The notes under the pieces were generated by a model. The model saw only the letters and a program-made list of their open reading frames with translations. It made no database searches and had not been told where the DNA came from. From the NCBI GenBank assembly GCA_001774075.1, contig MEYR01000004.1:1-39476 (forward strand): DNA of 39,476 bases. Direction: 5' to 3'. This document shows, piece after piece, positions 599 to 37,656 of the stretch. The DNA comes from Candidatus Azambacteria bacterium RIFCSPLOWO2_01_FULL_44_84. Lineage in GTDB: Bacteria; Patescibacteriota; Minisyncoccia; UBA10092. The first letter of the stretch is position 1. Every line of letters starts with the position of its first letter. The position numbers and the translations under genes are program-made.

Positions 599-2704
599 TT
601 ATTTTTCTTCTTCGACTTCGGTCTCATGGGGCTTCTTCCATGAAGCAAAGTCGCAGTCGGGCCAGCGCGAACAGCCGTAAAAGAATCGTCCTTTTTTGGT
701 CCGCCGTTTTACAATCTGTCCGGGATTATCCCGCTTTGCGGGATCTGGCGAAGCCAGACATTTCGGGCATGGCCCCAGTTTTTCCGCTTCTTTTTTCTCG
801 AGCGGGGCGGTGTATTTGCAGTCCGGAAATCCGGTGCAGGCATAAAACCTTCCGAAGCGGCCCATCCTAATCACCAATTCTTTGCCGCATTGTGGGCATT
901 TAAGATCGGTTTTTTCCGTGGTTACTTCTTTTTTGCTGAGTTCTTTTGTTTTTTTATCGAGGTTTTCTTTAAACGGAATCCAGAACTCTTTTACAACCGG
1001 TATCCATTCTTGTTTGCCTTCGGCGATACGGTCCAAGTCTTCTTCCATGCGCGCGGTAAACTGAATATCAACGATTTTTGGGAAATGTTCGGTTAAGATA
1101 TCGTTGACCAGGATTCCGATGTCGGTCGGTCTGAATCTTTTTTGCTCGTCTTTTTCCACGTAGCGGCGAATTTGGATAGTGGACATAATCGGCGCGTAAG
1201 TTGAAGGCCGGCCGATTCCGAATTCTTCAAGAGTTTTGATAAGCGTCGCTTCGTTGTAGCGCGCCGGAGGCTCGGTTTGGTGTTCAAGGGCCTCCGCTTT
1301 TTCCAATAATAATTTTTGGTTTTCTTTCAAATCCGGCAGTAAAATCTCCTCCATCTTTAACGGATAAACTCTCAGGAAACCGTCGAATTTAAGTTGCGAG
1401 CCGGAAGCTCTAAGGGTGTATTTGTCCGCTTTTATGTCAATTGAAGTGCTTGCTACAATTGTTTCCGGCATTTGCGACGCCATGAATCGTCTCCAAATCA
1501 AATCGTAAAGTTTGAATTGGCGGGGTTCCAGATATTTTTTCAGGCTTTCGGGATCACGGCCGGGATCCGCCGGCCTTACGGCCTCGTGAGCTTCTTGGGC
1601 TGATTTGGATTTAGTTTTGAACACACGCGTCGAATCCAGGGCGTAGCTTTTGCCGAACTCGGAAAGTATTTTTATTTTTGCCGCTTCCAGCGCCTCGACG
1701 GAAATGTTCACGGAATCGGTTCTCATGTAGGTAATAAGACCGGTTGGGCCTTCTTCGCCGATTTCAACGCCTTCATAAAGTTGCTGGGCGATCATCATTG
1801 TCTGCTTTGCCGACCATCTAAATCTCTGGAATGCCGCCTGCTGCATTGTTGAAGTTGTGAAAGGCGGCAGGGGAGAGCGCCTAACTTCTTTTGCCGTGAT
1901 TTTCTCTACTATAAAATCCGATTTTTTGAGTTCGGAAACAATGTCGTCGGCTTCTTCTTTTGTTTTTATGTCGAACTTGCCGACGGTTTTATTTTCTATT
2001 TTTACAAGACGTGTTTCGATCGGGTGAGAATTTTTTAGCAGGGCCGAAATCGTAAAATAAGTTTCCGGTTTGAAATTGAGCACCTCTCGTTCCCGTTCAA
2101 CAATGAGCCGGACCGCGACCGATTGCACTCGGCCGGCCGAGAGGCCGCGGGCGACTTTTTTCCACAAAAACGGAGAAAGTTTGTAGCCGACAAGCCGGTC
2201 TAGAATTCTGCGCGTCTGCTGGGCATCCACCAGATGTTCGTCAATGTTTCGCGGATGCTGAAGCGCTTTTTCGATGGCCGATTTGGTAATTTCGTGAAAA
2301 ACAATCCTTTCAACTTTCGGCATTTGGAGTTTGTCTGACTTCGCCAGATCTCGTGAAGCGGGAGAACTTGGAGTTTGTTTGTGATTTGTAATTTGTGATT
2401 TGGGTTTTTCCAAGCCAAGAGCTTGGATAAGGTGCCAAGAAATCGCTTCGCCTTCACGGTCTTCGTCAGTCGCGAGAATGACTTTTTTGGATTTTTTTAC
2501 TGCGGCCTTAAGCTCGGAAATTCTTTTTTTGGCTTTCGGAAGAATTGTATATTCGGGTTCGAAATCTTTCTCTACATCAATGCCGAGTTTCTTTTGCGGT
2601 AAATCCCGGACGTGTCCGTAGGAAGACTCAACGACAAAATCCCCCCCTAAAAATTTGGAGATTGTTTTCGCTTTTGTCGGAGATTCCACTATGACTAAGT
2701 TCAT
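599..2704 (-). CDS. topA: DNA topoisomerase I
   Basis: 701 aa. Toprim N-terminus 'MNLVIVESPTKAKTISKFLG..SYGHVRDLP', 'ATDEDREGEAISWHL', active-site region 'GLITYMRTDS', and two C-terminal Cys4 zinc ribbons. Confidence 0.97.
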   Translation of the reverse strand: MNLVIVESPTKAKTISKFLGGDFVVESSYGHVRDLPQKKLGIDVEKDFEPEYTILPKAKKRISELKAAVKKSKKVILATDEDREGEAISWHLIQALGLEKPKSQITNHKQTPSSPASRDLAKSDKLQMPKVERIVFHEITKSAIEKALQHPRNIDEHLVDAQQTRRILDRLVGYKLSPFLWKKVARGLSAGRVQSVAVRLIVEREREVLNFKPETYFTISALLKNSHPIETRLVKIENKTVGKFDIKTKEEADDIVSELKKSDFIVEKITAKEVRRSPLPPFTTSTMQQAAFQRFRWSAKQTMMIAQQLYEGVEIGEEGPTGLITYMRTDSVNISVEALEAAKIKILSEFGKSYALDSTRVFKTKSKSAQEAHEAVRPADPGRDPESLKKYLEPRQFKLYDLIWRRFMASQMPETIVASTSIDIKADKYTLRASGSQLKFDGFLRVYPLKMEEILLPDLKENQKLLLEKAEALEHQTEPPARYNEATLIKTLEEFGIGRPSTYAPIMSTIQIRRYVEKDEQKRFRPTDIGILVNDILTEHFPKIVDIQFTARMEEDLDRIAEGKQEWIPVVKEFWIPFKENLDKKTKELSKKEVTTEKTDLKCPQCGKELVIRMGRFGRFYACTGFPDCKYTAPLEKKEAEKLGPCPKCLASPDPAKRDNPGQIVKRRTKKGRFFYGCSRWPDCDFASWKKPHETEVEEEK
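729..760 (+). repeat. 32-nt core repeat (copy inside the topA zinc-ribbon coding region, antisense to topA)
   Basis: 'tcccgctttgcgggatctggcgaagccagaca' is near-identical to the reverse complement of 2332-2363 and to 29315-29346. Confidence 0.8.
2332..2363 (-). repeat. 32-nt core repeat (copy in the topA N-terminal insertion, sense to topA)
   Basis: The minus strand reads 'tcccgcttcacgagatctggcgaagtcagaca', flanked by 'caaatcacaaattacaaatcacaaac' and 'caaactccaaa' word repeats. Confidence 0.8.
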
Positions 2705-7991: not shown

Positions 7992-8182
7992 TTACAGTTT
8001 CTGATTGAGTTACTCATCCCACCCCGATTGTCTTTCCGAACCGGGTGTTCTCTTGCTCCAGCGGCAAGAGCCACCACTGCTCTCTCGGCTCAAAACTTCG
8101 CCTGCGGCGAAGACCAAGCTTTTTCGCCTCCGAGAGCTTCTCCAAGACAACCGGGTGGGCTTCATTAATTAGTTTTTAAAAT

Positions 8183-8350
8183 GAGGCGACTAGATGTAAT
8201 TTTTAGCAGGCTACTTTTGCGAGCGGCCAAGGTCTCCGATAAATATCGGAGGAGCGAGAAAAAGTGATCCGAGCCGACGGGCTCGGAGAGTTACTGAGCG
8301 AGTCTCGGGGGGATGAGCGAGGGGTGCTAAAAAATACATCTAGTCGCCTC
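8183..8350 (+). mobile_element. MITE-like element with about 25-bp terminal inverted repeats, copy 1
   Basis: Ends are 'gaggcgactagatgtaatttttagca' and 'tgctaaaaaatacatctagtcgcctc'. The interior aligns to the reverse complement of 14339-14495. Confidence 0.8.
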
Positions 8351-8438
8351 CTTCTACCAGTAAGTTGCATTTTCTCAAATTTTATGGCATTTTAATGGCA
8401 AATTCCGGTTCATTGATAATTCGAAACAAGGGAAGGCA

Positions 8439-12247: not shown

Positions 12248-14371
12248 TTAATTTTGTTTTAGAGTTTCTACCGCCTCGCTAAGCATCTGGCAATATAAAT
12301 TAAGACCGATTGCCGAAATGTGGCCTGACTGCTCTCTGCCCAAAATATTGCCCGCGCCTCTGATTTCCAAATCTTGCAAGGCGATATCATCGCCGGCGCC
12401 CAGATCCTGATGCTCCTGAAGCGCCAAAAGCCTCCGTTTGGCTTTATCTCCCGCCCCGTTAGAAGCCGCTCTGCCGGAAGCGCGGCTACGATCGTCTTGG
12501 GACGATCTGCTTCTAACGGGGTCAAATTTTTTTGATTGATACAGGAAATAAGCGTAGGCCTGGGCGTTTGACCTGCCGATCCGGCCTCTTATTTGGTGGC
12601 TTTGAGAAAGCCCCAAACGGGAGGCGCTGTCGACGATTAATGTATTGGCATTCTGAAAATCAAGGCCGTTTTCGATAATGCTTGTCGCGAGAATCATCTG
12701 GATTTCGCCGACGTGGAATTTTTTCATTGTTTCTATTATCTGTTTTTCGGACAGCCGCGCGTGAAGTATCCCGATTTTGAGGTCTGGTTTTATTTTCAGC
12801 AGGCGCCTTTTCACCAACTCTATAGTTTCAATGCGGTTATGAAGATAATAGATTTGACCACTGCGTTCCAGCTCAAAATCAATCGCGTCCCTGATAACTT
12901 TCCGGGAGTAAGGCAAAACGAAAGTTTTTATCGCGAGGCGGCCGGGCGGCGGAGTTTTGATCTGGCTTACGTCCTGCAGCGAAGAGAGCGCGAGATAAAG
13001 CGTGCGGGGGATGGGCGTGGCCGACAAGTTTAGGATGTCGATTTTGGGGTTCAACGACTTAAGTTTTTCTTTTTGCTTAACGCCGAATCGCTGTTCCTCG
13101 TCTATTATCAAAAGTCCTCCCTTTTGGGGGAAAAGATCCGCCAGGTCTTTTGAGAGCAAACGATGAGTGCCGATGACGATGTCAATCTTGCCGTCTTTGA
13201 TTTTTTTAATGACCTCATGCTGTTCCTGTTTTGGTGTCAGGCGGGAGAGCCGCGCGACCATAATCGGAAAACGGCTGAATCTTTTTGAGAAAGTTTCAAA
13301 ATGCTGTTCGCAAAGAATAGTGGTCGGCGTCAGAACCGCCACCGGCAATCCTGAAAGCACCGCTTTGAAAGCGGCTCTCATAGCAACCTCGGTTTTGCCG
13401 AAACCGACGTCGCCGCACACAAGCCGGTTCATCGGCCGTTCTTTTCTAAGGTCAGCGCTGATTTCTTCCAGAGCGCGGATTTGGTCTTCGGTTTCTATAT
13501 ATTCGAATTCTGTAGCGAAATATTTTTCTTGCGCTTCGTCTCCTAGGACCGGTTGTCTTTGAGCCATTTCTCTTTTGGCGTAAAGAGCGATTAGTTCCTG
13601 AGCCAGCTTTATCGTTTCTTCTTTTATTCTTTTTTTGGTATTGAACCAAATCTGGCTGCCCAGGCGGTGAATCTGAGGCGTTGCGAACCCCAAATAAGGC
13701 GACAGTTTGTCAGCTTTAACAAATGGCACATAAAGCGTGTCTGGCGCCGCGCCCGGCCGCGGCGCTCCGTATTCAATTATGAAAAAATCAGAACCGTTTT
13801 GGTCGTTTGAAATTTTGGCTTTGTTTGGAATTTGTAATTTGGGCTTTGTGGTTTCATTTTCCGCGGCAAAGCCGCGGAAAATGCCTATTCCATGGTCGAG
13901 GTGGACGACATAATCGCCGGGCTTGTATCTTTCTTCTATTTTTGATTTTTTGAGACGAGCCAGCGTCGCCGATTCTTTTTCGGCGGCGGTGAGTTTAATA
14001 TCGCTTATTGTTTCGATGATATTGCCAAGCCAATCAATCTTTATGGGCATGACGGCATTTATCGGGAAGACGTCAATACTTCCGCCGAGTTGTGAAAATT
14101 CGCCCCTCGCTCCCAGATAAGAAACTCTTTCATATCCCAAATCGGTAAGCCGCCGCAGTACTTCGGAGATTTTAACGCTTTGGCTAGTTTCCAGAAACAG
14201 GGTGTTGTCTTGCCACCAGGAGTTGGTTTTGGCATGGGTTTTTATTTTTTCAAAATTTTCCTGAAACCATAAAAGCCCCTTCTCCAAAAATGAGGGGGTG
14301 ATTCCGGCAATCAGGATTTCTTGATTTGTTTTCATATCAGGCGACCAAATCTGCTTTTTAGCACCCTTCAC
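12248..14371 (-). CDS. mfd: transcription-repair coupling factor, compact form
   Basis: RID/CarD-like 'GDYVVHLDHGIGIF', 'GDVGFGKTEVAMRAA', 'IIDEEQRFG', 'QIRGRIGRS', TRG motif 'LEIRGAGNILGREQSG'. The GTG at 14371 has a GGAGG SD 5 nt upstream, inside repeat 14339-14495. The ATG at 14335 is the alternative start. Confidence 0.9.
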   Translation of the reverse strand: MKGAKKQIWSPDMKTNQEILIAGITPSFLEKGLLWFQENFEKIKTHAKTNSWWQDNTLFLETSQSVKISEVLRRLTDLGYERVSYLGARGEFSQLGGSIDVFPINAVMPIKIDWLGNIIETISDIKLTAAEKESATLARLKKSKIEERYKPGDYVVHLDHGIGIFRGFAAENETTKPKLQIPNKAKISNDQNGSDFFIIEYGAPRPGAAPDTLYVPFVKADKLSPYLGFATPQIHRLGSQIWFNTKKRIKEETIKLAQELIALYAKREMAQRQPVLGDEAQEKYFATEFEYIETEDQIRALEEISADLRKERPMNRLVCGDVGFGKTEVAMRAAFKAVLSGLPVAVLTPTTILCEQHFETFSKRFSRFPIMVARLSRLTPKQEQHEVIKKIKDGKIDIVIGTHRLLSKDLADLFPQKGGLLIIDEEQRFGVKQKEKLKSLNPKIDILNLSATPIPRTLYLALSSLQDVSQIKTPPPGRLAIKTFVLPYSRKVIRDAIDFELERSGQIYYLHNRIETIELVKRRLLKIKPDLKIGILHARLSEKQIIETMKKFHVGEIQMILATSIIENGLDFQNANTLIVDSASRLGLSQSHQIRGRIGRSNAQAYAYFLYQSKKFDPVRSRSSQDDRSRASGRAASNGAGDKAKRRLLALQEHQDLGAGDDIALQDLEIRGAGNILGREQSGHISAIGLNLYCQMLSEAVETLKQN
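12454..12521. repeat. 68-nt multi-hairpin element embedded in frame in mfd
   Basis: Outer 13-bp stem 'ccccgttagaagc'/'gcttctaacgggg' encloses hairpins 'agccgc..gcggct' and 'gatcgtc..gacgatc'. It encodes the extra 'PVRSRSSQDDRSRASGRAASNG'. Confidence 0.75.
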
Positions 14372-14495
14372 TCATCCCTCCGAAACTCGCTCAGTGGCTC
14401 TCCTCGCCAGTCGGCTCGGATCACTTTTGCTCGCTCGGCTTCGCCTCCTTGGCCGCTCGCAAAAGTAGCCTGCTAAAAACCACATCTGATCGCCT
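14339..14495 (-). mobile_element. MITE-like element with about 25-bp terminal inverted repeats, copy 2 (inverted relative to copy 1)
   Basis: Ends are 'aggcgaccaaatctgctttttagca' and 'tgctaaaaaccacatctgatcgcct'. 'ccttggccgctcgcaaaagtagcctgcta' is the reverse complement of 8207-8235. Confidence 0.8.
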
Positions 14496-15245: not shown

Positions 15246-15818
15246 AGCCATTTCCAATTGGGAGACGGCTTTTTTTATTGTATTGCCGAGAATTTTTAAT
15301 TCTGCCGGCGTAAATTTTTTCAAAATAATTTTTTCAGCGGGCGTGTGTTTTTTTAGGGTAGGTTGGATACCTATTCTTATTCGCCAAAAATCTTTTGTTT
15401 TTAGAGCCCCGATGATAGATTCAACTCCCTTGTGCCCCCCAGATGATCGTCCGAATGATATTTTAAAACTTTCCCAAAGAATATCAATGTCATCGTGAAT
15501 TATCCAAATATCTTTAGGCTTAATTTTGTAAAATTTTGCCAAAGCCGCGACGGCAACGCCGGATTTATTCATAAATGTTTGAGGTTTGGCCAGAATCATT
15601 GTTTGGGTTTTGATTTTTGGGCTTTGTAATTTGTTTGATTTTTGGGCTTTGTAATTTGGAATTTCGGCTTCCGTTACTTCGGAAAATAATTTTTTCTTAT
15701 AATTGAATTCCGCTACTTTTAGTTGTCTTGCCAGCTCATTAACAAAAAGGAAGCCGGCATTGTGGCGGGTGTTTTCATATTCTTTTTCGGGATTACCGAG
15801 GCCGATGATTAGTTTCAT
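15231..15818 (-). CDS. pth: peptidyl-tRNA hydrolase
   Basis: Start taken at 'MKLIIGLGNPEKEYENTRHNAGF'. 'FMNKSG' and 'HDDIDI' are present. It carries a word-repeat insertion of about 20 aa. Confidence 0.9.
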   Translation of the reverse strand: MKLIIGLGNPEKEYENTRHNAGFLFVNELARQLKVAEFNYKKKLFSEVTEAEIPNYKAQKSNKLQSPKIKTQTMILAKPQTFMNKSGVAVAALAKFYKIKPKDIWIIHDDIDILWESFKISFGRSSGGHKGVESIIGALKTKDFWRIRIGIQPTLKKHTPAEKIILKKFTPAELKILGNTIKKAVSQLEMASDNS

Positions 15819-15927: not shown

Positions 15928-16235
15928 CAGGAAGTGAAAATTGGACTACCCTCCTAAATTCTTTTGCCCGATTAATCGGTGTTGGGCTAATCATGGTTTC
16001 TCTAACTTACAAAAAGAGCCTGCGCTCTAATGAAGAATTTGGAGGGCAAAAATGCCAGGAAGTAGAAATTCGACAAATTCATTTTTGTCCTTAAAATTCT
16101 TTATTAAAACTCAAGATATATTTTGTGTATAGCGTACACTACAGTGTCAATCTAGAAAAAACGGACAAAAAGAATTTTTAAGGATGGGTCGAATTTTCAC
16201 TTCCTGGAATGAATTTGTCCAATTTCTACTTCCTG
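15928..16235 (+). mobile_element. 308-bp composite repeat, copy A
   Basis: Interleaved inverted motifs: 'caggaagtgaaaattggac' (15928), 'ccaggaagtagaaattcgacaaattcat' (16055), 'gtcgaattttcacttcctgg' (16188), 'aatgaatttgtccaatttctacttcctg' (16208). The right-hand 196 bp or so is near-identical to the reverse complement of copy B. Confidence 0.9.
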
Positions 16236-16250
16236 ATAAAATTTTAGACA

Positions 16251-16814
16251 ATGAAAGAGGCAATGCGTAATTTTTTTGGCTTTATCTGGGAACTTTTTAA
16301 GATCGCCGTCATTGCGTTGGTGCTGGCGGGGCTTGCCCGTTATTTTATTTTCCAGCCGTTTTTCGTGAAAGGCGCTTCCATGGAGCCGAATTTTGACGAT
16401 GGCCAATACTTGATAGTTGATGAGCTAAGTTATTATTTCCGCACTCCTGAAAGGGGCGAAGTGATTGTTTTTAAGTATCCTTTAGACACCCGCACTTACT
16501 ATATCAAAAGGATAATAGGGCTTCCCGGGGAGACGGTTGAGATTAAATCCGGACAGGTGAATGTTTATAATGACGAAAACCCCAAAGGTTTTGTTTTGAA
16601 TGAGGCTTACTTGCCACAAGGCCTCGCGACCGATGGCAATGTCAAACAGCGCCTCAATAGGGATGAATATTTTGTTCTTGGCGATAACAGATTGTCGTCT
16701 TCGGATTCCCGGCGCTGGGGGGTTTTGCCAAAAAGCGATATTGTTGGAAGGGTGTTTGTAAGGGTCTGGCCGGTGGATACTTTTGAATTACTCAATCAGG
16801 CGCCGGCGTATTAG
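16251..16814 (+). CDS. lepB: signal peptidase I
   Basis: 'GASMEPNF', 'YIKRIIGLPGETV', 'VLGDNRLSSSDSRRWG'. Confidence 0.93.
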   Translation: MKEAMRNFFGFIWELFKIAVIALVLAGLARYFIFQPFFVKGASMEPNFDDGQYLIVDELSYYFRTPERGEVIVFKYPLDTRTYYIKRIIGLPGETVEIKSGQVNVYNDENPKGFVLNEAYLPQGLATDGNVKQRLNRDEYFVLGDNRLSSSDSRRWGVLPKSDIVGRVFVRVWPVDTFELLNQAPAY

Positions 16815-16896
16815 ATTAATTTTGAAATTGATTTGGAAATTAGAACTTAAAAATTGATTAAAAATTGAAAATTTGAAATTAAAAATTTAGTTATTT

Positions 16897-18961: not shown

Positions 18962-19456
18962 ATGAATTTAAACCAAAAACTGACCGAAGACATGAAAGCC
19001 GCGATGAAAAGCGGCGATTCACAAACGCTCTTGACCGTTAAACTTCTGATCAGCGCGATTCACAATAAAGAAATAGAAAAAAGAACCAAGCTCTCCAAAC
19101 AAGTCACCGAAGCGCGGGAACTCGAAGAAAAATCCCGTCTGACCGAAGAAGAAATTATCGAAGTGATCTCAAGCGAAGTAAAAAAACGCAAAGACTCCAT
19201 TGCCGCTTACGAATCCGCGAGACCTGACTTGGCGGAAAAAGAAAAACAGGAATTGGAAATCCTAAAAAAATACGCGCCGAAGGAATTGTCCGGGGAAGAG
19301 GTAAGAATAATCGTAAAAGCAAAAATTATCGAGACCGGCGCTTCTTCCACCAAAGATTTTGGCAAAGTGATGGGCAGGGTAACTCAAGAAACCAAGGGAC
19401 GGGCCGATGGAGTTCTGGTAAAGAAGATCGTTGAGGAAGAATTATCCCAACTATAA
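18962..19456 (+). CDS. GatB/YqeY-domain protein
   Basis: 164 aa; 'LTEDMKAAMKSGD...TVKLLISAI' and 'DFGKVMG' fit the YqeY pattern. Confidence 0.82.
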   Translation: MNLNQKLTEDMKAAMKSGDSQTLLTVKLLISAIHNKEIEKRTKLSKQVTEARELEEKSRLTEEEIIEVISSEVKKRKDSIAAYESARPDLAEKEKQELEILKKYAPKELSGEEVRIIVKAKIIETGASSTKDFGKVMGRVTQETKGRADGVLVKKIVEEELSQL

Positions 19457-19563
19457 ATTTTAAATTTCTAATTTTAAATTTTCAATGAATTTCTAATGAT
19501 TTAATGTTTAAAAATTAAGAAATTAGAATTTGATTCAAAATTTAAAATTCAAAATTGGAAATT

Positions 19564-20082
19564 ATGCCGCATGAGATTCTTGTATATAATAAAACGAAGT
19601 TTCTGATACCCCGTAAATTCGTTGTTAATGTTATTTTGAAATCGCTTAAAAACCTCGGAATTAAACAGCCAGTCGAAATGGCTGTTTTAGTTGTCGGCGA
19701 CAAGAAAATTCGCCGGCTGAACCGAATCTGGCGAAGAAAAAACAGGGCCACTAATGTATTGTCTTTTCCACAGATGACAAAAACCGAGTTGAAAAAATCG
19801 GTTAATTTTGGCTCTGGAAGTCGGAAATTGGGAAAACCTGCCCGTCCGGAAGGCGGGTTTGATTTGCAGTCAAAGTCCGTGATATCATTAGGACAAATAT
19901 TGATAGATCCGCACCAAATTCTGTCGGGAATAAAAAAGAATCGAAAAGATTTCGAAAAAGAATTGATAAAACTTGTTATCCACGGCCTTCTGCATCTTCT
20001 CGGATACGATCATAAGACAACAAAAGAAGGGCGTGAGATGGCGGCACGAGAAGAGAAAATTTTAAAAAATATCAAATTATAA
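19564..20082 (+). CDS. ybeY: rRNA maturation endoribonuclease YbeY
   Basis: ATG at 19564 preferred to the TTG at 19555. 'TNVLSFP' and metal site 'HGLLHLLGYDH'. Confidence 0.9.
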   Translation: MPHEILVYNKTKFLIPRKFVVNVILKSLKNLGIKQPVEMAVLVVGDKKIRRLNRIWRRKNRATNVLSFPQMTKTELKKSVNFGSGSRKLGKPARPEGGFDLQSKSVISLGQILIDPHQILSGIKKNRKDFEKELIKLVIHGLLHLLGYDHKTTKEGREMAAREEKILKNIKL

Positions 20083-20111
20083 CTTTTCACTTTAAATTTT
20101 TAATTTCTATT

Positions 20112-21332
20112 ATGACTCGCGAACAAATAATCGTAGGATTGGATGTCGGCACGACGGCTGTGAAAACGGTTGTTGCCCAGAAATCTCGGACACAACTTTT
20201 GCCTCAAATCGTCGGCTGGGGTTCTGCCGACAGTCGCGGTATTAAAAAGGGAGTGGTTGACGACATTGAAGAAGCGGCTTTAGCTATAAGCGAATCCTTT
20301 GAAAAAGCGAGAGCTCACGCGGGCATTAAGTTTGATGAAGCGATTGTCAGCGTCGGCGGCGATCACGTTATCGTTAGGCCGTCGCGCGGTATCGCAATGG
20401 TTTCACGCGCCGACCGGATTATTTCAAACGAAGACATTGAACGCGCTTTGGCGCAGGCGTCATCTTTAACACCCATCCCGAACAGGGAATTGCTGCATAA
20501 TCTGCCCCAGGCCTGGAGCGTTGACGACGATCGGGCAGTCAAGGATCCTCTTGGCATGACAGGAAGCCGTTTGGAAGTTAACACCCTTTTGATTGAAGGT
20601 TTTTCCAAGCCCATAAAAGATTTACGAAAAGCGGCGGACCTCGCCGGAATACGCGTAAAAGAAATAGTTTTTACGCCGCTGGCCGCTTCACGCGCCATCC
20701 TAAACCGGAAACAGCGGGATTTAGGAGCTTTGGTCTTGGATATCGGTGGCGGCACGACGAGTCTCGCGGTTTTTGAAGAAGGGGACATCACTCACGCGAT
20801 GGTCCTGCCTTTTGGTTCTCATTATGTAACGCGGGACTTAGTCAAGGGACTTGTTATAGACGCCGAATCCGCCGAAAAACTGAAAAAGGCCCATGGTTCG
20901 GCATTTGTTGAATCAACCAGTTCCAGAGACATGGTTGACTTGAAAAAATTCGGGGGGGATAAAACCGTTGAGCGCAAAGTAATAGCTGAAATTTGCGAAG
21001 CGAGGTTTTCAGAAATTCTTGAGCAGGTCCAAAAACAGGTTAAGTCGCTGAAAAAATCAATTTATCTGCCGGGAGGCGTGGTGCTGACTGGCGGTGGCTC
21101 AAAGATTCCGAGGCTTGATAAACTGGCAAAAAAGGAGCTCGGTTTGCCGACGGCTCGCGGAGTTGCCGAAGAAATCATCGGGCCAGAAGAAATTCTCCAG
21201 GATTCTTCTTATGCTACGGCTTTGGGATTGGTGATGTGGGGATTTGACGAGGGAAAGGTATTGGTATCCCAAAACGATGAAGAAGGTTTTTGGAGGGGTC
21301 TGATGAACTGGCTGAAGAAATTTGCCCCGTAA
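20112..21332 (+). CDS. ftsA: cell division protein FtsA
   Basis: 'GLDVGTTAVKTVV', 'DIGGGTTSLAVF'; immediately upstream of ftsZ. Confidence 0.93.
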   Translation: MTREQIIVGLDVGTTAVKTVVAQKSRTQLLPQIVGWGSADSRGIKKGVVDDIEEAALAISESFEKARAHAGIKFDEAIVSVGGDHVIVRPSRGIAMVSRADRIISNEDIERALAQASSLTPIPNRELLHNLPQAWSVDDDRAVKDPLGMTGSRLEVNTLLIEGFSKPIKDLRKAADLAGIRVKEIVFTPLAASRAILNRKQRDLGALVLDIGGGTTSLAVFEEGDITHAMVLPFGSHYVTRDLVKGLVIDAESAEKLKKAHGSAFVESTSSRDMVDLKKFGGDKTVERKVIAEICEARFSEILEQVQKQVKSLKKSIYLPGGVVLTGGGSKIPRLDKLAKKELGLPTARGVAEEIIGPEEILQDSSYATALGLVMWGFDEGKVLVSQNDEEGFWRGLMNWLKKFAP

Positions 21333-21341
21333 AGACTTTCT

Positions 21342-21440
21342 CCTACCAATTACGAATGATCGCGAATTACGAATAAATAAAATAAATTTATAATTGGCAT
21401 TTGAAATATTCGTAATTCGGTGTTATTCGTAATTAGTAGG
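21342..21440. repeat. CCTAC-(ATTACGAAT)n hairpin element, copy 1
   Basis: 'cctaccaattacgaat..cgaattacgaat' pairs with 'attcgtaattcgg..attcgtaattagtagg'. The right end 'gtaggaa' sits 8 nt before the ftsZ ATG. Confidence 0.85.
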
Positions 21441-21448
21441 AAATTTAT

Positions 21449-22645
21449 ATGCCTCACATTAAACCGGACATAGAAACATTCGCGCGTATTAAAGTGGTCG
21501 GTGTCGGCGGCGGCGGCGGCAACGCCGTTACCCGCATGGTTAACGCTCAAATAAAGGGCGTTGATTTTATTGCCGTCAATACCGATGCGCAGGATCTGCA
21601 CCATACAAAGGCCCAGGTGAAAATCCACATAGGCAAAAATTTGACCCGGGGTCTCGGCGCGGGGATGAACCCGGACGTCGGCCGGCAGGCGGCGGAAGAA
21701 AACCGCGACGAAATTCAGGACGCCCTAAGGGGGGCTGACCTTGTTTTTATCACCTGCGGTCTTGGCGGCGGAACCGGTTCGGGCGCCTCGCCGGTCATTG
21801 CCGACGCGGCTAAAGACGTCGGTGCTTTGGTAGTGGCAGTTGTTACAAGACCCTTTGGTTTTGAAGGAGCCCAGCGGACCAAGATAGCCGATGAGGCGAT
21901 GACACAGCTGCGCGACCGCGTCGACACTCTCATTACGATTCCGAACGATAAAATCCATAATTTAATTGATAAGAATACGAGCATTTTGGATGCTTTTGGC
22001 ATAGTTGATGACATTTTGCGTCAGGGCGTTCAGGGCATTGCCGATCTGATAACTTACCCCGGCATTGTTAATGTGGATTTTGCCGATATAAAGGTAATCA
22101 TGTCCGAAGCCGGGTCGGCTCTTTTGGGCATCGGCAAGGCCTCGGGTGAAGACCGCGCAGTAAACGCGGCTAAGTCCGCTATTAACTCTCCTTTACTTGA
22201 TGTTTCTATTGACGGCGCCCGGGGTGTTTTGTTCAATGTTTCCGGTGGCGCGGACCTAACAATGACCGACATAAACGACGCCGCGAAAGCTATTACAGAG
22301 TCAATCGATTCCAACGCCAAAGTCATTTTTGGCGCCTTGCATGATACTCGCCTGAAGAAAGGTGAGGTTAAAGTGACTGTAATCGCCACCGGATTTGGAA
22401 GTAATAGAAGTAATAGCAATGGGAATGAGCCGCTTTTTAAAAGTGAATCGCAGCTCAAGCCGCCCTTTAAACCCGCACTGATCCGGCCGGTCATATCGTT
22501 GGATATAAATGGCAATGGTAAAAAATCGGAAGTAATCAAAGGTATTAACGTCTCTAAAAAACCCGAAGTCCAAATCATTGATGAGGAAGAAGACGAGTGG
22601 GATGTACCGGCATTTTTAAGAAGAAAAAAGGATGTTAAGAAATAA
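21449..22645 (+). CDS. ftsZ: cell division GTPase FtsZ
   Basis: 'GVGGGGGNAV', 'GGGTGSGASPVIA', C-terminal 'DVPAFLRR'. Confidence 0.98.
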   Translation: MPHIKPDIETFARIKVVGVGGGGGNAVTRMVNAQIKGVDFIAVNTDAQDLHHTKAQVKIHIGKNLTRGLGAGMNPDVGRQAAEENRDEIQDALRGADLVFITCGLGGGTGSGASPVIADAAKDVGALVVAVVTRPFGFEGAQRTKIADEAMTQLRDRVDTLITIPNDKIHNLIDKNTSILDAFGIVDDILRQGVQGIADLITYPGIVNVDFADIKVIMSEAGSALLGIGKASGEDRAVNAAKSAINSPLLDVSIDGARGVLFNVSGGADLTMTDINDAAKAITESIDSNAKVIFGALHDTRLKKGEVKVTVIATGFGSNRSNSNGNEPLFKSESQLKPPFKPALIRPVISLDINGNGKKSEVIKGINVSKKPEVQIIDEEEDEWDVPAFLRRKKDVKK

Positions 22646-22654
22646 GGGCTTCCT

Positions 22655-22725
22655 CCTACGAATTACGAATGCGGTCGAATTACGAATTTATAATTTGTAA
22701 TTCGCTAATATTCGTAATTAGTAGG
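22655..22725. repeat. CCTAC-(ATTACGAAT)n hairpin element, copy 2
   Basis: 'cctacgaattacgaatgcggtcgaattacgaat' and 'attcgctaatattcgtaattagtagg'. 'taggattgcATG' leads into comEC. Confidence 0.85.
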
Positions 22726-22730
22726 ATTGC

Positions 22731-26865: not shown

Positions 26866-26970
26866 AAATCTCAAATCTCAATTTCCAATTTCTAATAAAA
26901 TCTCAAGCTTCAAATCTCAAATTTATGCTTTTGGTCATTGGGATTTGAGGTTTTATTTGACATTGGGATT

Positions 26971-26997
26971 TTGACATTGGGATTTTTGTCGTATAAT
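26971..26997 (+). promoter_or_regulatory. promoter-like element (perfect hexamers, short spacer)
   Basis: TTGACA (26971-26976), 15-nt spacer, TATAAT (26992-26997). Confidence 0.4.
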
Positions 26998-27003
26998 GTA
27001 CTT

Positions 27004-27192
27004 GGCTTTGGGAGCGGTTCTTTTTGAAGATTTTGGGCTAAAAATATATATTAGGGATTCCTATATCGCTCCGGCGCGTGCGCCGGAGTTGCGGACACCC
27101 ACTTGGATTTAATTCCAATAATCTTCCTAAAGAATTTCCTGAGGCTATTAAAATCCCCGCCGACATCTGCGAAGTTGTGGCGGGGATTTTTT
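27004..27192 (+). ncRNA. candidate small RNA of about 190 nt, unknown class
   Basis: Bounded by the promoter-like element and an intrinsic terminator. No ATG-initiated ORF. Internal palindrome 'ctccggcgc gt gcgccggag' at 27069-27088. Confidence 0.3.
27150..27192 (+). terminator. rho-independent terminator
   Basis: 'atccccgcc' (27153-27161) pairs with 'ggcggggat' (27179-27187), followed by T6. Confidence 0.65.
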
Positions 27193-27500
27193 AATTCTTG
27201 ACCAGGAAGTAGAAATTGGACAAATTCATTCCAGGAAGTGAAAATTCGACCCGTCCTTAAAAATTCTTTTTGTCCGTTTTTTCTAGATTGATACTGTAGT
27301 GTACGCTATACACAAAATATATCTTGAGTTTTAATAAAGAATTTTAAGGACAAAAATGAATTTGTCGAATTTCTACTTCCTGGCATTTTTGCCCTCAAAT
27401 TCTTTATTACATCAGATAAGCTTTTTACCATGTTTTAGAAATTATAATGGTTAAACATTGAATCGCCGGGCAAAAGAATTTGAAAGGGCGTGTCCAATTT
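27193..27500 (-). mobile_element. 308-bp composite repeat, copy B (inverted relative to copy A)
   Basis: The reverse complement aligns end to end with 15928-16235. 27193-27388 is near-identical; a stretch of about 70 bp (about 27400-27465) is divergent. Confidence 0.9.
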
Positions 27501-29062: not shown

Positions 29063-29284
29063 TTATACTCGAGTTTTGTGCATTGTTTTAATGCAGGTGA
29101 CGCAGGCCTTAACTCTTTTGCCGGAAGCCCCGCCGACGCCAAGGCTTTGGCGGGCAGGCAAATGAACCCATTGGAGATTGGGGTATTTTCTGACTTTCGG
29201 GGCGGGGTTATATTTGCCACGAAGCTTGTTTCTTGGTGTAATTAAAGTTGAAGTTTTGGCGCAAATAGCGCAGACTCGGGACAT
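29063..29284 (-). CDS. rpmB: 50S ribosomal protein L28
   Basis: 'MSRVCAICAK', 'YPNLQ', C-terminal 'CVTCIK'. Confidence 0.88.
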   Translation of the reverse strand: MSRVCAICAKTSTLITPRNKLRGKYNPAPKVRKYPNLQWVHLPARQSLGVGGASGKRVKACVTCIKTMHKTRV

Positions 29285-29314
29285 AGTGTTAAAAAATTTC
29301 TAATTTCTAATTTT

Positions 29315-29346
29315 TCTCGCTTCGCGAGATCTGGCGCAGTCAGGCA
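29315..29346 (+). repeat. 32-nt core repeat, intergenic copy
   Basis: 'tctcgcttcgcgagatctggcgcagtcaggca' flanked by 'aatttctaat' word repeats. Confidence 0.8.
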
Positions 29347-29413
29347 ATTTCTAATCAATTTCCAATTTATAATTTCTAATATTATTACATAAAGTATAAC
29401 TTTTTACAACCCC

Positions 29414-30058
29414 ATGGAGATTTTACTATTTGTTTTCGTAATATTGGTGCTTTTATTTTCGGCAGTCATCCACGAGGTGTCGCACGGTCTCACGGCGAAG
29501 TTTTTAGGGGACGACACGGCCGAAAAAGCCGGTCGGCTGACGCTCAATCCGATTCCTCACCTCGATCTTTTTGGTTCGGTCATCTTACCGCTACTTTTGG
29601 CGATTCCGGCGTTTTTTGGCGGACCAGCTCTTGTTATCGGTTGGGCTAAGCCGGTGCCTTACAACCCCGCCAATCTCAAAAACAAAAAATGGGGACCGTC
29701 GTTTGTCGCCTTGGCCGGGCCGATTTCAAACATAATTCTTGCTTCATTTTTTGGTTTGATGATCCGGTTTATGCTTATTCCCTCCAGTCTTCTTAACACA
29801 AGTTTTCTTTCGTTTATCGCGATAATCGTCTGGATAAATTTGCTTTTGGCGGTGTTTAATATGGTGCCTATTCCGCCGCTTGACGGCTCAAAACTTCTGA
29901 TGGCGGTTCTGCCGCGGCGCTGGGATTGGCTCGGCCTGTGGCTTGAACGCTATGGCTTCATAATCATCTTGCTTTTTGTGTTTTTTGGCTTCAGCCTGAT
30001 CATACCTATTATAAAAGGCCTGTTCTGGCTGATTACCGGCCAGCAGTTTGGGTTTTAG
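29414..30058 (+). CDS. M50-family (site-2 protease-like) membrane metalloprotease
   Basis: 'HEVSHG' and 'NMVPIPPLDGSKL'; polytopic. Confidence 0.85.
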   Translation: MEILLFVFVILVLLFSAVIHEVSHGLTAKFLGDDTAEKAGRLTLNPIPHLDLFGSVILPLLLAIPAFFGGPALVIGWAKPVPYNPANLKNKKWGPSFVALAGPISNIILASFFGLMIRFMLIPSSLLNTSFLSFIAIIVWINLLLAVFNMVPIPPLDGSKLLMAVLPRRWDWLGLWLERYGFIIILLFVFFGFSLIIPIIKGLFWLITGQQFGF

Positions 30059-31745: not shown

Positions 31746-32213
31746 ATGCGTAGAAAACGAGAAGTAAAACGAAATATTCTGCCCGATACCCGCTACAACA
31801 ACGTGCAAGTAGCGAAGTTTATTAATTACCTTATGCGCCAGGGCAGAAAAACCGCGGCCCAGAAAATTCTCTACGGCGCTTTTGATATTATTGAAAAAGA
31901 AAAGAAAGCCAACCCTCTGGAAATATTCGACCGGGCTTTGAGGAATGTTTCGCCGGTGATCGAGGTTAAGTCCAAGCGGGTCGGCGGCGCCAACTATCAG
32001 GTGCCGCAGGAAGTAAGAGGCGAGCGGAAAACCGCTCTGACTTTCCGCTGGATTATCGGCGCGGCCAACGCCAAGAAAGGCAAACCGATGCGCGCCAAAC
32101 TTGCCGAGGAGCTTCTGCTTGCGTCAAACAACGAAGGCAACGCTATTAAGAAAAAATTGGACATGCATAGGATGGCCGAGGCCAATAGAGCATTTGCTCA
32201 CTTCAGTTGGTAA
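31746..32213 (+). CDS. rpsG: 30S ribosomal protein S7
   Basis: 155 aa; 'PDTRYNN', '[16 protein letters not shown]', '[10 protein letters not shown]'. Confidence 0.97.
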
Positions 32214-32337
32214 TTTGCGAATTACCAAAATTTTCAATTTTCAATTTTAAATTTTCAATCAATTTTTAATGATTCAATTTTAAAATTTTCTAATTAGAAA
32301 TTGATTAGAAATTAGAAATTGGAAATTAGAAATTATC

Positions 32338-34440
32338 ATGAACGAGTATCCCATCGAAAAAATTCGTAACATAGGAATTATCGCTCACATAGATGCTGGC
32401 AAAACTACTGTAAGTGAGCGTATTTTATTTTACACTGGCATCTCTCACAAAATTGGAGAAGTGCATGAGGGCGCGGCCATTATGGACTGGATGGAGCAGG
32501 AACGGGAGCGCGGCATCACCATTACGGCCGCGGCGACCACTACTTTCTGGAAGCCGAGCTACTTGCCGGCTGAACAAAGAAAGGAAAATGAGTACCGCAT
32601 TAATATTATCGACACTCCCGGCCATATTGATTTTACCGTTGAAGTTCAGCGCTCGCTCCGCGTTCTTGATGGTGCGGTAGTGGTTTTTGACGGCGTTGCC
32701 GGCGTGGAACCGCAGTCCGAAACCGTCTGGCGCCAGGCCGACAAATACGGCGTGCCCCGCATGTGTTTTATAAACAAGCTCGACCGCATGGGCGCTTCTT
32801 TTGACAAGAGCCTAACCTCGATTCGCGAGCGCTTGACTTTAAACGCTGTCCCGACCGTCACGCCTATAGGCATGGCCGAAACATATGAGGGCGTTATCGA
32901 TTTGATCGAGAACAAGGCCGTCAGGTTTCTTGGGGAAAACGGCGAAAAAGTGGAATTTTATGATATCCCTGCTGAATTGAAAGAAAAAGCCGAGGCCGAT
33001 AGAAAATATATGATAGAGAGAGTCGTTGAGACAAATGACAGGCTGATGGAAAAATATCTTGAGGGCCAGGAGATTTCTAAAGAAGATCTGCGAAAAGCTT
33101 TGCGCGAGGCAACCATCGCCAACAAACTCGTACCGATCATCTGCGGCTCGGCTCTTAAAAACAAAGGCGTCCAGCTGATGCTTGACGGCGTTGTCAATTA
33201 TCTGCCGAATCCGGACGAGGTGCCGCCGACAAAAGGCACGGATTTTAAAGGTCGGGAAATCTTCCGTCATCCCAAAAATGAAGAGCCTTTCGCGGCTCTG
33301 GCTTTTAAAATTGCCACCGACCCGTTTGTCGGCTCTCTAACTTATTTCCGCGTTTACTCCGGCCAGATCGCCAAAGGTTCTTATGTCTTAAACTCGACAA
33401 AGGATTCAAAAGAGCGCGTTGGCCGAATTTTACGAATGCATGCCAACGAGCGAGAGGAAATGGAAGAAATCAAAGCGGGGGAGATCGGCGCCGCAGTCGG
33501 TCTTAAAAATACCACGACCGGCGACACGCTTTGCTCCGAGGACGATCCGATTATTCTTGAAAAAATTATCTTCCCGGATCCGGTTATCTCGCAGAGAATC
33601 GAACCCAAGACCAAAGCCGACCAGGAAAAAATGGGCTTTGCTTTGAAGCGTTTGTCTGACGAAGATCCGACCTTCAGAATCAGGACCGATCAGGAAACCG
33701 GCGAAACGATTATCGCCGGCATGGGCGAACTCCACCTTGAAATCATCGTTGACCGCATGAAGCGGGAATTTAAAGTTGAGGCCAATGTCGGCCGGCCGCA
33801 GGTCGCTTATAAGGAAACCATTAAAAAGACCGCCGAAGCGGAAGGCAAATACATCCGCCAGTCGGGCGGTCGCGGACAATATGGTCATGTCTGGTTGCGG
33901 GTTGAGCCGAATGAACGCGGCAAGGGTTTTGAATTCGTCAACGAAATCAAAGGCGGCCTCATTCCCCAAGAGTTCATCGCCCCGGTGCAAAAGGGCGTTA
34001 TTGAAGCGATGGAAAAGGGCATTAAAGCCGGCTTCCCGGTTGTTGACATTAAAGTGGCGCTTTATGACGGCTCTTACCACGAGGTTGACTCTTCGGAAGC
34101 GGCTTTCAAGATTGCCGGTTCGATGGCCTTGCAAGAAGCGGCCCGCCGCGCTAATTTAGTGTTGCTTGAGCCGATAATGAAAGTTGAGGTAATTACTCCC
34201 GACCAGTTTCTGGGAGACGCGACTGGCGATCTGAACTCCAAACGGGGTAAAATTGAAGCCATGACCGATCGCGCCCAGCTTAAAGTCATTGACGCCAAAG
34301 TGCCTTTGTCTGAAATGTTCGGATACGCCACAAAACTGCGCTCAATGACCCAGGGCCGCGCGAGTTATACAATGGAATTTGATCATTATGAAGAAGTGCC
34401 GGCCAACGTTGTCGAGCTTATTGTCGCCGGAAAGAAATAA
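32338..34440 (+). CDS. fusA: elongation factor G
   Basis: 'AHIDAGKTT', 'DTPGHIDF', 'NKLDR'; 700 aa. Confidence 0.98.
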
Positions 34441-34445
34441 TAGCC

Positions 34446-34510
34446 CCTACGAATTACGAATTTTACCGAATTACGAATTCGTAATTCGAACCCCATTCGT
34501 AATTGGTAGG
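34446..34510. repeat. CCTAC-(ATTACGAAT)n hairpin element, copy 3
   Basis: 'cctacgaattacgaattttaccgaattacgaattcgtaattcgaaccccattcgtaattggtagg'. Confidence 0.85.
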
Positions 34511-36722: not shown

Positions 36723-36795
36723 TTCGTTTTTCGGGTAAAGTCGCTAAAATGCCCCCGAATTGGGGGTATTTAGTTAGATAGCATTGATTCATTCT

Positions 36796-36867
36796 CCTAC
36801 TCCTACGAATTACGAATATTTTCGAATTACGAATATTCGCAATTCGTCATAATTCGTAATTGGTAGG
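36796..36867. repeat. CCTAC-(ATTACGAAT)n hairpin element, copy 4
   Basis: 'cctactcctacgaattacgaatattttcgaattacgaat' pairs with 'attcgcaattcgtcataattcgtaattggtagg'. Confidence 0.85.
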
Positions 36868-36877
36868 GATAAAATTT

Positions 36878-37507
36878 ATGAAGTTTATTTTGGGGAAAAA
36901 ATTAACGATGAATCAGGTTTTTGATGAAACGGGTCGTGTGACGCCGGTTACTTATATTGAGATTGAACCGAATTTCGTGACGCAGGTAAAAACTCAAGAC
37001 AAAGACGGCTACAGCGCCTTGCAAGTCGGCACGACTAAAACCAAAAAAGTTTCAAAAGCGAGGGCCGGCCACCTCCAAAAAATCTCAAATCTCAATTCTC
37101 AAATCTCAAATTTGCGCGATTTGAAAGAATTCAGAATGAGCGGGGAGGAAGCGAAAAATTTTAAAACAGGAGACAAATCGGAAGCCGACACGTTTGCGCA
37201 GGGCGACACGGTGACCGTCATTGGAGTTTCAAAAGGCAAGGGTTTTCAGGGCGTTGTTAAGCGCCACGGGTTCGCGGGAGGGCCTGCCAGCCACGGCCAG
37301 AAAGACAGGCACCGGGCGCCTGGTTCTATCGGTTCGTCTTTTCCGGAACACGTTATGAAAGGCATGAGAATGGCCGGCCGCATGGGCGGAGAAAAAATTA
37401 CGGTGAAAAATTTGAAAGTTATTTCGGTTGACAAAGAAAATCAGTTGATCGCGCTTTCGGGCGCGGTGCCGGGAAGAAAAGGCAGTCTGGTTATTATTAA
37501 GGGATAG
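36878..37507 (+). CDS. rplC: 50S ribosomal protein L3
   Basis: Start at 'MKFILGKKLTMNQVFDE' (the track TTG at 36860 lies inside the repeat). 'GKGFQGVVKRHGF', 'PGSIGSS'. Confidence 0.95.
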   Translation: MKFILGKKLTMNQVFDETGRVTPVTYIEIEPNFVTQVKTQDKDGYSALQVGTTKTKKVSKARAGHLQKISNLNSQISNLRDLKEFRMSGEEAKNFKTGDKSEADTFAQGDTVTVIGVSKGKGFQGVVKRHGFAGGPASHGQKDRHRAPGSIGSSFPEHVMKGMRMAGRMGGEKITVKNLKVISVDKENQLIALSGAVPGRKGSLVIIKG

Positions 37508-37621
37508 AACCTTATAACAATAATTTTAAATTTTTAATTTTAAATTTCGAATCAAATTCGAATTATTTAATGTTTGAAACATTCAGACATTTAAAATTCA
37601 TTTAAAATTCAAAATTTGAAA

Positions 37622-37656
37622 TTGAAAATTAAAGAAAACCCCCGCAGTTGCGGGGG
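37622..37656 (-). terminator. rho-independent terminator for the minus-strand cassette
   Basis: The minus strand reads 'cccccgc aact gcggggg' followed by 'ttttctttaatttt'. On the plus strand no T-run follows the hairpin. Confidence 0.6.

Follow-up and report, generated by a model that had tools for sequence, protein, structure and literature searches.

The locus examined here raises the question of why an essential gene should contain DNA that also occurs in the spacers between genes. The window, by which we mean the whole stretch of DNA analysed (39,476 nt, contig MEYR01000004.1), comes from Candidatus Azambacteria bacterium RIFCSPLOWO2_01_FULL_44_84, a member of the candidate phyla radiation (CPR, Patescibacteria), and the gene is topA, encoding DNA topoisomerase I. 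An earlier interpretation made from the letters alone (the sequence-only reading) had noted about 30 extra residues in the TopA linker and, in their DNA, a 32-nt core with an AGATCT centre and a second copy beside rpmB. The present analysis identified a 30-nt unit composed of two hairpins, termed element E, of which the window contains three copies. E is very probably a mobile hairpin element that is tolerated in frame. Features that go beyond the sequence-only reading are its insertion at TG^CA without duplication, a second and fresher copy in topA, a family extending across the CPR, and a tie to tRNA-Cys genes and GIY-YIG nuclease genes. The gene and the copies are as follows.

599 to 2704, minus strand: topA, type IA DNA topoisomerase I, 701 aa, host of two copies of E (open reading frame list, Pfam and homologues).
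729 to 758, plus strand: intact copy, TCCCGCTTTGCGGGA|TCTGGCGAAGCCAGA on the plus strand, in the last zinc ribbon of topA (covariance model, 51 bits, E-value 2e-12; inverted repeat I21).
29315 to 29344, plus strand: intergenic copy in the spacer between rpmB and an M50-type protease gene (covariance model, 37 bits, E-value 1e-8; inverted repeat I12).
2334 to 2363, minus strand: decayed copy, TCCCGCTTCACGAGA|TCTGGCGAAGTCAGA on the gene strand, encoding PASRDLAKSD, TopA residues 115-124 (pattern search and covariance model, 28.8 bits, E-value 2e-6).

The covariance model was trained on copies from other genomes and applied to the window, where it found exactly these three copies (E-values 2e-12, 1e-8 and 2e-6) and nothing else significant. 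The likeness between the linker and the spacer, put at about four mismatches by the sequence-only reading, was confirmed, with 28 of 32 positions identical between the 32-mers at 2332-2363 (minus strand) and 29315-29346 (plus strand); the chance expectation for a 32-mer match with at most three mismatches was 0 in 100 shuffles. That reading had seen only these two copies, and the third, intact copy in the zinc ribbon was overlooked. It surfaced by repeat finding at 726-760 (plus strand) and lies in the opposite orientation to the linker copy. Its translation from the gene strand is LASPDPAKRD (residues 650-659, in the context CPKC-LASPDPAKRD-NPGQIVKRR), and it folds perfectly (z = -4.5). The first hairpin of the intergenic copy is perfect and the second is decayed. 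In the linker copy, whose orientation is the minority one, neither stem is free of mismatches, and its folding is on a par with that of shuffled sequence (z ~0). These mismatches mark it as an old copy, one through which the ribosome simply reads and which, being still in frame, must be translated. An Rfam scan of the window at the gathering threshold returned a tRNA-Pro only, with no match at the element.

E consists of two tandem 15-nt hairpins, 30 nt in all, each with a 6-bp stem and a 3-nt loop of the form TC-NNGC-NNN-GCNN-GA. The consensus is TCTCGCTTCGCGAGA + TCTGGCGAAGCCAGA (TCTCGC-TTC-GCGAGA followed by TCTGGC-GAA-GCCAGA), with a GA|TC junction. The AGATCT formerly taken as the centre of a palindrome is this junction, and the element is two hairpins, not one palindrome. 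Similarly, the 32-nt core does recur, but its flanking TG and CA belong to the target. Among the matches listed, both stems are perfect in 152 of the 163 unique copies, and the stems TCTCGC, TCTGGC, TCCCGC and TCCGGC are found in every combination, with variable loops. Stem types beyond the search pattern also occur (TCTAGC, TCCTGC, TCCGCC and TCAGCC). As the stems vary with compensatory changes, the two-hairpin shape is a conserved feature of E.

The zinc-ribbon copy allows filled and empty alleles to be compared. A protein search found 8000 TopA homologues at an E-value of 1e-50 or below, the closest being P0002 (87% identity), P0003 (88%) and P0004 (84%). The insert is present in P0002 and absent from P0003 and P0004. 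In the nucleotide alignment, for which the DNA of the relatives L042, L043 and L044 was used, the copy is found in the window and in L043 and is missing from L042 and L044, with a gap of exactly 30 nt at AAGTG^CAAT. In the DNA of these close relatives the empty allele reads CCGAAGTG^CAATATCGG, and the filled allele reads CCGAAGTG, then the 30 nt, then CAATCCCGG. The insert comprises just the two hairpins, placed between TG and CA; no bases are duplicated, and TGT replaces TGC as the Cys codon. The nucleotide-identity tree is ((window, L042), (L043, L044)), and an insert confined to the window and L043 therefore needs more than one event. Two further filled/empty pairs were found in other TopA lineages, at AAATG^TAAT and AAATG^CGGC, and the copy occurs in 6 of 120 TopA homologues, scattered over the set. 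The presence or absence of E thus differs among closely related genomes. Among the matches listed, the flanks average TTTG|E|CAAA, with T at position -2 in 80% and G at position -1 in 63% of copies, and the commonest flank pair is TG..CA. Many intergenic copies lie inside arrays of 7-nt words whose sequence is genome-specific; the flanks of E copies show a lag-7 self-match peak, and the word junction AAATTA^CAAAT is similar to the target of E. The spacer copy in the window sits in such an array, as the sequence-only reading had described:

29290 to 29383, plus strand: AT-rich array of AATTTCT-type 7-nt words enclosing the intergenic copy (repeat families D3 and D10). The neighbouring genes are rpmB (29063-29284, minus strand) and the M50-type protease gene (29414-30058).

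A degenerate core was scanned against the 185,579 species-representative genomes of GTDB and gave 41 loci, almost all in Patescibacteria or in unclassified bacterial metagenome-assembled genomes (MAGs); the window's own genome was not among these matches. A metagenome scan with a structural pattern gave at least 120 loci, and the two scans together provided a pooled set of at least 163 unique copies. Further copies, on which the sequence-only reading depended, are therefore present in the window, just outside it and in at least 160 places in other CPR genomes and metagenomes. E is a family spread over many CPR/Patescibacteria lineages, including Saccharibacteria, Paceibacterota, Liptonbacteria, Yanofskybacteria, Azambacteria, Wildermuthbacteria and Staskawiczbacteria. 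Two MAGs among the GTDB matches are labelled Bdellovibrionales and Gammaproteobacteria and are probably mis-binned CPR contigs; the same is probable for L005 and L031, judging from their AT-rich word flanks or tRNA-Cys cassette. Matches in Rhodocyclaceae (L006) and Acidobacteriaceae (L014) lie in GC-rich coding sequence, form no hairpins and were rejected as chance matches. The metagenome matches L064, L154, L163, L146 and L090/L162 are Gly/Ser-rich or GC-rich coding repeats and were excluded from the model. Two pattern matches in IMG/VR viral contigs were both tandem GC-rich repeats and not E.

Related hairpins were seen in other arrangements. In the same genome, about 5 kb past the window start, an intergenic double hairpin (L173, 17248-17285) reads TCCGCC-CGA-GGCGGA + TCAGCC-TCT-GGCTGA, with a related half-unit immediately upstream; its different stems indicate that this genome has more than one stem variant. 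In another CPR genome, a RelA/SpoT-family gene beside topA carries an in-frame double hairpin, TCCGCC-AAA-GGCGGA + TCCGCC-TTT-GGCGGA (L165, 5050-5087), close to the end of the available part of the gene. Single 15-nt hairpins, TCTGGCTACGCCAGA and TCTGACTATGCCAGA, stand alone in the T-loop of tRNA-Cys fragments (the downstream fragments of L156 and L080), and on account of these the 15-nt hairpin may be the elementary unit, of which the 30-nt form is two.

All genic copies that were classified are located in an open frame, and a unit of 30 nt always keeps the reading frame, adding 10 residues to the host protein and persisting in tolerant loops of essential proteins. The earlier claim that the element can land in coding sequence while preserving the frame is thus upheld. 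Pfam confirmed 30 host open reading frames (ORFs), and more than 25 housekeeping genes have an in-frame copy. The hosts include UvrA, UvrD/AddA-like helicases, class I tRNA synthetases, a class II tRNA synthetase, RecJ, FtsZ (twice), ATP synthase alpha/beta, a Mur ligase, TsaD, Mfd, MnmA, DnaX and a prepilin peptidase. The most frequent translated reading is Cys followed by LASPDLAKRD, and copies cluster at the CxxC zinc knuckles of TopA, IleRS-like enzymes, DnaX and a class II synthetase; both preferences follow from the target, since TG^CA, read in that frame, gives TGC for Cys and an A as the first base of the next codon. All six frames of canonical E are free of stop codons, and the same holds for 75 of 116 distinct variants among the matches listed. 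The orientation of the hairpins on the sense strand is biased 25:5 in genes (p = 3e-4) and 8:3, in the same direction, in co-directional spacers, and both orders of the two hairpins (circular permutations) occur. The bias and the two orders together suggest a strand-specific process and would be compatible with a dumbbell-like circular intermediate.

Within the window, a separate G+C-rich segment was noted in rpmB (29063-29284, minus strand), where the gene for L28 contains 39 nt of partly hairpin-forming, in-frame sequence, PARQSLGVGGASG, at 29118-29160. It is flanked by CATTTG and CAAAAG, like the target flanks of E; its folding z is only -1.7.

The linker of TopA, where the question began, has a more complex history. 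Its features are:

about 2313 to 2393, minus strand: extra linker segment, 81 nt/27 aa, TopA residues ~101-127, with boundaries uncertain by a few nucleotides (DNA alignment with L042, L043 and L044; protein alignment of 120 homologues).
2377 to 2402, minus strand: 7-nt word repeats CAAATCA CAAATTA CAAATCA CAAAC on the gene strand, encoding KSQITNHKQ (direct sequence reading).
2324 to 2334, with a second copy at 2368 to 2378, minus strand: 11-nt direct repeat ACAAACTCCAA bracketing the linker element (word search).

Pfam matched Toprim, Topoisom_bac and two Zn_ribbon_Top1 domains in the product. The extra segment reported earlier is real and is absent from the relatives at 84-88% identity, although it amounts to 27 residues, not about 30. 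In P0002-P0004 the linker reads ALxLG-KKHPY-ERIVFHEIT, and the spacing from WH to RIVFHEIT is 43 aa in the window TopA, 16 in the close relatives and 13-16 in 70 of the 120 homologues. The identical TopA with both inserts is encoded in two independent assemblies, which shows that the inserts are not an assembly artefact; the samples ERZ4903070 and ERZ28563591 both contain the contig. In the AlphaFold model (mean pLDDT 83.6), residues 101-126 sit between a Toprim helix and the next strand, have pLDDT <50 and show no secondary structure; as modelled, the insert is a floppy, disordered surface loop, a point that the sequence-only reading had proposed to check. Repeat family D2 connects the words at 2377-2402 to word arrays at 13806-13854 and 15584-15671. 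The 11-nt direct repeat may be part of the word array and not a target duplication; by contrast, the zinc-ribbon copy shows no duplication.

Linker inserts are common in other TopA proteins. About 43 of the 120 homologues (P0001-P0120) carry K/N/Q-rich inserts of 6-33 residues between WHL and RIVFHEIT, and many of these resemble translated 7-nt words. The linker of L166 contains words only, that of L165 contains AAATCCG words around a different GC hairpin, and in L167 words surround a degenerate double hairpin. The linker is thus a site that tolerates inserts and a general hot spot of length variation. We conclude that the window's linker segment is probably an in-frame, lineage-specific insertion made of spacer-type 7-nt words and an old, decayed 30-nt double-hairpin copy. 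The linker copy probably has no function in topA and is simply translated.

Outside the window, E is associated with tRNA-Cys genes. Among the matches listed, tRNA-Cys is the nearest tRNA within 400 nt for 26 of 162 copies (16%). Many flanks read GGTCTG|E|CAAAACC, in which the anticodon arm of tRNA-Cys(GCA) is cut in two between G34 and C35. An intron-like interruption of a functional tRNA-Cys was considered and ruled out; of 20 such loci, 19 had an intact tRNA-Cys according to ARAGORN, and in the dissected cassettes it stood next to the element, so that the split pieces are fragments. These fragments differ in sequence from the intact tRNA-Cys and have extra hairpins in the D-loop and T-loop. 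The element and the tRNA are separated by an 80-aa ORF comprising a GIY-YIG catalytic domain (PF01541, E-value 2e-16), whose nearest solved relatives are UPF0213 BH0048 (PDB 1zg2) and the structure-specific endonuclease SLX1. The cassette, whose anatomy was found in about 18 related loci, begins with the tRNA-Cys 5' part ending in GGTCTG, E, CAAAA and the GIY-YIG ORF, and continues with the intact tRNA-Cys, a short spacer ending in GGTCTG, E and the tRNA-Cys 3' part. The two copies of E within one cassette are often identical, and those of different loci differ. Cassette loci include L118 (620-1094, minus strand), L159, L111, L022, L029, L084, L041, L156, L080, L129 and L144, and the GIY-YIG start codon lies 10-20 nt downstream of the element.

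Clustering of the proteins encoded within 400 nt of E copies placed GIY-YIG at 15 loci. The next clusters were IF-2-like (infB) and likely RbfA-like proteins (identified by eye), whose presence agrees with the gene order conserved around tRNA-Cys. That order leaves a single recurrent neighbour unexplained, GIY-YIG. No recurrent transposase-like protein was found within 400 nt of E copies, and whole genomes were not searched for TnpA or for RAYT (the tyrosine transposase associated with repetitive extragenic palindromic (REP) sequences). From this syntenic position, after the IF-2- and RbfA-like genes, the cassette looks like a nuclease gene and a spare tRNA lodged in the resident tRNA-Cys gene, as in a homing-type replacement of the tRNA. 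A parallel cassette was observed for tRNA-Leu (L046, 3506-3954), where E splits D-arm fragments, GAGGTGGTG|E|GAATTGGTA, on both sides. Similar GIY-YIG ORFs precede tRNA-Leu(taa), tRNA-Leu(gag), tRNA-Glu and tRNA-Val (L046, L050, L035 and L072), and in L050 a different single hairpin, CCTGCCTGCGCAGGCAGG, takes the place of E.

A nuclease-linked mechanism of E copying is put forward here as a tentative proposal. The copies would be made by a strand-specific, structure-dependent process through a single-stranded, dumbbell-like intermediate. A break or nick at an anticodon-loop-like site would be healed with E, either by synthesis from an existing copy primed on TG/CAA microhomology or by capture of an excised single-stranded unit. 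The 80-aa SLX1-like GIY-YIG nuclease would make the breaks or excise E, and solo copies such as those in topA would be healed breaks at anticodon-loop-like sites. At shared sites such as the TopA zinc ribbon, DNA uptake and recombination of filled alleles may add to the spread. The wider proposition is that E is the footprint of an unrecognised CPR mobile system, in which a minimal GIY-YIG nuclease invades tRNA-Cys with a replacement tRNA and TG^CA breaks are healed by E, possibly via a single-stranded dumbbell; we regard it as doubtful.

Several observations weigh against a mobile element with a nuclease partner. The search patterns fixed the TC, GC and GA positions, and the invariance of these positions is therefore partly circular. 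Strict matches number 1-3 per GTDB genome, which is unusually few for a transposing repeat. All three filled TopA alleles have AAT CCN (Asn-Pro) after E, unlike the empty ones; this fits recombinational spread between topA alleles, or later selection, as readily as it fits fresh insertion, and may reflect co-transfer of flanking bases or selection for a turn. The ends of the window's linker (LE-KPKS... and ...KLQMPKVERIV) are closer to distant TopA proteins than to its nearest relatives, and for this reason a gain in the window TopA, a loss in the relatives and an exchange of alleles are all possible histories. Neither a GIY-YIG gene nor a tRNA-Cys is found in the 39-kb window. The link between GIY-YIG and E is, as read from the sequences, an association, and E may prefer the anticodon-loop sequence of tRNA-Cys while the nuclease gene is an unrelated resident there.

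Other explanations account for some of the same observations. Spread of copies at orthologous sites by DNA uptake and homologous recombination, resembling homing-like gene conversion, is possible. Distant TopA lineages carry E at one shared site at which their own close relatives have none, the downstream AAT CCN is common to all filled alleles, E is nearly identical while the flanking synonymous sites have diverged, and dprA, a transformation gene, adjoins topA. Yet the Pro codon differs among the filled alleles (CCC, CCG and CCA), as do the stems and loops of E, and the L030 TopA has E at the same site in the opposite orientation. Copies at unrelated sites are also left unexplained by recombination, which complements the mobile-element explanation and does not replace it. 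It is unlikely that E is a non-autonomous single-stranded DNA element moved in trans by an HUH/Y1 transposase (IS200/IS605 TnpA or RAYT), with GIY-YIG as a bystander. The absence of target duplication, the hairpins with compensatory changes, the short specific target and the strand bias do fit such an enzyme, these being hallmarks of IS200/IS605-type peel-and-paste transposition. Against it, the recurrent neighbour within 400 nt of the copies is GIY-YIG and not a transposase-like protein; in IS200/IS605 the guide and cleavage sequences of the ends lie beyond the hairpins, whereas the ends of E are the feet of its hairpins, and E lacks the GTAG or CGTC tags of REP sequences.

Two explanations dispense with mobility. 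We consider it very unlikely that E is a functional RNA motif, such as a signal for protein binding or processing or a tiny intron, kept by selection. Covariation does conserve the structure, the orientation is biased with respect to transcription and copies lie in tRNA loops, but no Rfam family matches, and the tRNA-Cys pieces split by E are fragments beside an intact gene. The classified genic copies all lie in open frame, and topA, an essential gene, has kept in frame a decayed linker copy that has lost its fold. In each of the three empty-site pairs the gap is exactly 30 nt, a presence/absence difference for which selection for function offers no account. Growth of the linker segment in place, by slippage of A-rich sequence, with the likeness of the core due to coincidence or local convergence, is extremely improbable. 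About 43 of 120 TopA linkers are at least 6 aa above the 13-16 aa mode, and that of L166 contains words only, and the word part of the window's linker may well have grown by slippage. The core, on the other hand, matches the model from other genomes (E-value 2e-6), and E recurs in unrelated CPR genes and spacers.

When E is set beside known repeat systems, different properties point to different relatives. The Rickettsia palindromic elements, reportedly described by Ogata et al. in 2000, are said to be ~100-150 nt long and to occur only in Rickettsia. They resemble E as short palindromic repeats found in spacers and in frame in essential genes, with a peptide tolerated on the protein surface. 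E likewise has in-frame genic copies and spacer copies, but it is not one ~100-150-nt palindrome; it differs in its 30-nt length, two separate hairpins, TG^CA-like target without duplication, occurrence in many CPR lineages and tie to tRNA-Cys and GIY-YIG. In behaviour E thus appears closest to the Rickettsia elements, a parallel that the sequence-only reading had drawn and that is a fair analogy of behaviour and not of family. The hosts of the two are unrelated. In size E seems closest, again by analogy, to the cyanobacterial small dispersed repeats attributed to Elhai et al. (2008), which are said to be mobile, <30 nt, nested in repeats and genes, and to encode no protein. These have another sequence and other hosts; neither a double-hairpin rule nor a link to tRNA or to a nuclease is reported for them.

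In form, the nearest counterparts would be the double-hairpin elements reported from Allomyces mitochondria (Paquin, Laforest and Lang 2000, cited in PMC4478555), and the yeast mitochondrial GC clusters, which have AG target nucleotides on both sides (PMC4478555). All are G+C-rich, tens of bases long, with two hairpins, in A+T-rich genomes, and show presence/absence mobility by an unknown mechanism. The mitochondrial elements are organellar, whereas E is bacterial, fixed at 30 nt, without target duplication in three comparisons and with a candidate nuclease partner; the likeness is one of form and implies no common descent. REP sequences and bacterial interspersed mosaic elements (BIMEs), with their RAYT proteins, are 20-40 nt hairpin repeats thought to move as single strands (PMC3733652, PMC3116915), with a GTAG or CGTC tetranucleotide at the palindrome 5' end (PMC3733652). 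E shares with them the size range, hairpin formation and bacterial hosts, and in their case a hairpin-recognising enzyme is thought to move the repeats. REP sequences are extragenic, high copy, species-specific and tagged, whereas E is untagged, often genic, low copy and cross-lineage; its hairpins start with TC and end with GA, and no recurrent RAYT was found within 400 nt of E copies.

Phage T4 SegB is a free-standing GIY-YIG homing endonuclease encoded in a tRNA gene cluster (PMC2330249). The CPR loci similarly place a GIY-YIG gene among tRNA genes, and the cassette resembles a nuclease and replacement tRNA in a resident tRNA-Cys gene. A GIY-YIG domain beside an interrupted target gene, as in a homing cassette, is found in the related loci; the window contains no cassette. 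SegB is a full-length, site-specific phage enzyme, whereas the CPR protein is an 80-aa catalytic domain only, chromosomal and with 30-nt inserts at the splits. To our knowledge, no 30-nt hairpin inserts have been described for Seg enzymes. E lacks the target duplication that goes with the terminal inverted repeats of miniature inverted-repeat transposable elements (MITEs); its halves are near-inverted repeats, but no duplication was seen in three filled/empty comparisons. It shares with IS200/IS605 the lack of duplication and a specific short target. The ends of E coincide with the hairpin feet, and no TnpA was seen within 400 nt of copies. No known intron family or splicing motif (group I/II or bulge-helix-bulge) matches E, which has no Rfam hit at the gathering threshold and which, as the decayed copy shows, stays in frame and is translated. 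In the literature, whether searched by sequence, by the peptide LASPDLAKRD or by topic, neither E nor its cassette was found to be described for CPR bacteria.

Other repeats are present in the window. From ~16.8 to 37.6 kb, many of the spacers consist over their full length, stop to start, of arrays of 7-nt words (AATTTCT, ATTACGA, GAAAATT and CAAATCT). The arrays located by repeat finding are:

16820-16896, 19440-19565, 20058-20112, 21330-21441 and 22643-22726: word-array spacers.
26866-26985, 32213-32334, 34434-34488, 36784-36868 and 37506-37630: word-array spacers, continued.

Long AT-rich palindromes occur within the arrays (for example 19456-19509 versus 19510-19563, and 21341-21383 versus 21399-21441). 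A 214-nt inverted repeat with 95% complementarity (16039-16252 and 27186-27399) brackets ~11 kb and contains 29-nt sub-repeats (CCAGGAAGTAGAAATTCGACAAATTCATT and variants) in both arms. Inverted repeats at 8177-8356 and 14339-14495 (98 nt at 85% and 49 nt at 92%) bracket ~6 kb including an Mfd-like gene (12248-14371), and a local 32-nt hairpin is formed by 8177-8208 and 8325-8356.

The proteins and rRNAs of CPR/Patescibacteria are known for unexplained insertions. With E, one concrete and recurring origin can be named for 10-residue inserts in essential proteins, including TopA, tRNA synthetases, FtsZ, DnaX and UvrA. It is among the shortest mobile-looking DNA units described, with 30 nt, an exact target, no duplication and many named CPR lineages. 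It could be used as a marker for CPR contigs, and it calls for caution in alignment-based phylogeny and structure prediction of CPR proteins. E also points to a testable enzyme partner. A nuclease gene that brings a spare tRNA along could settle in an essential tRNA gene present in single copy, which would be a new strategy for such a gene. There is a real chance that E is the visible part of a new mobile system; if so, that system would have seeded 10-residue inserts into essential proteins across the CPR radiation.

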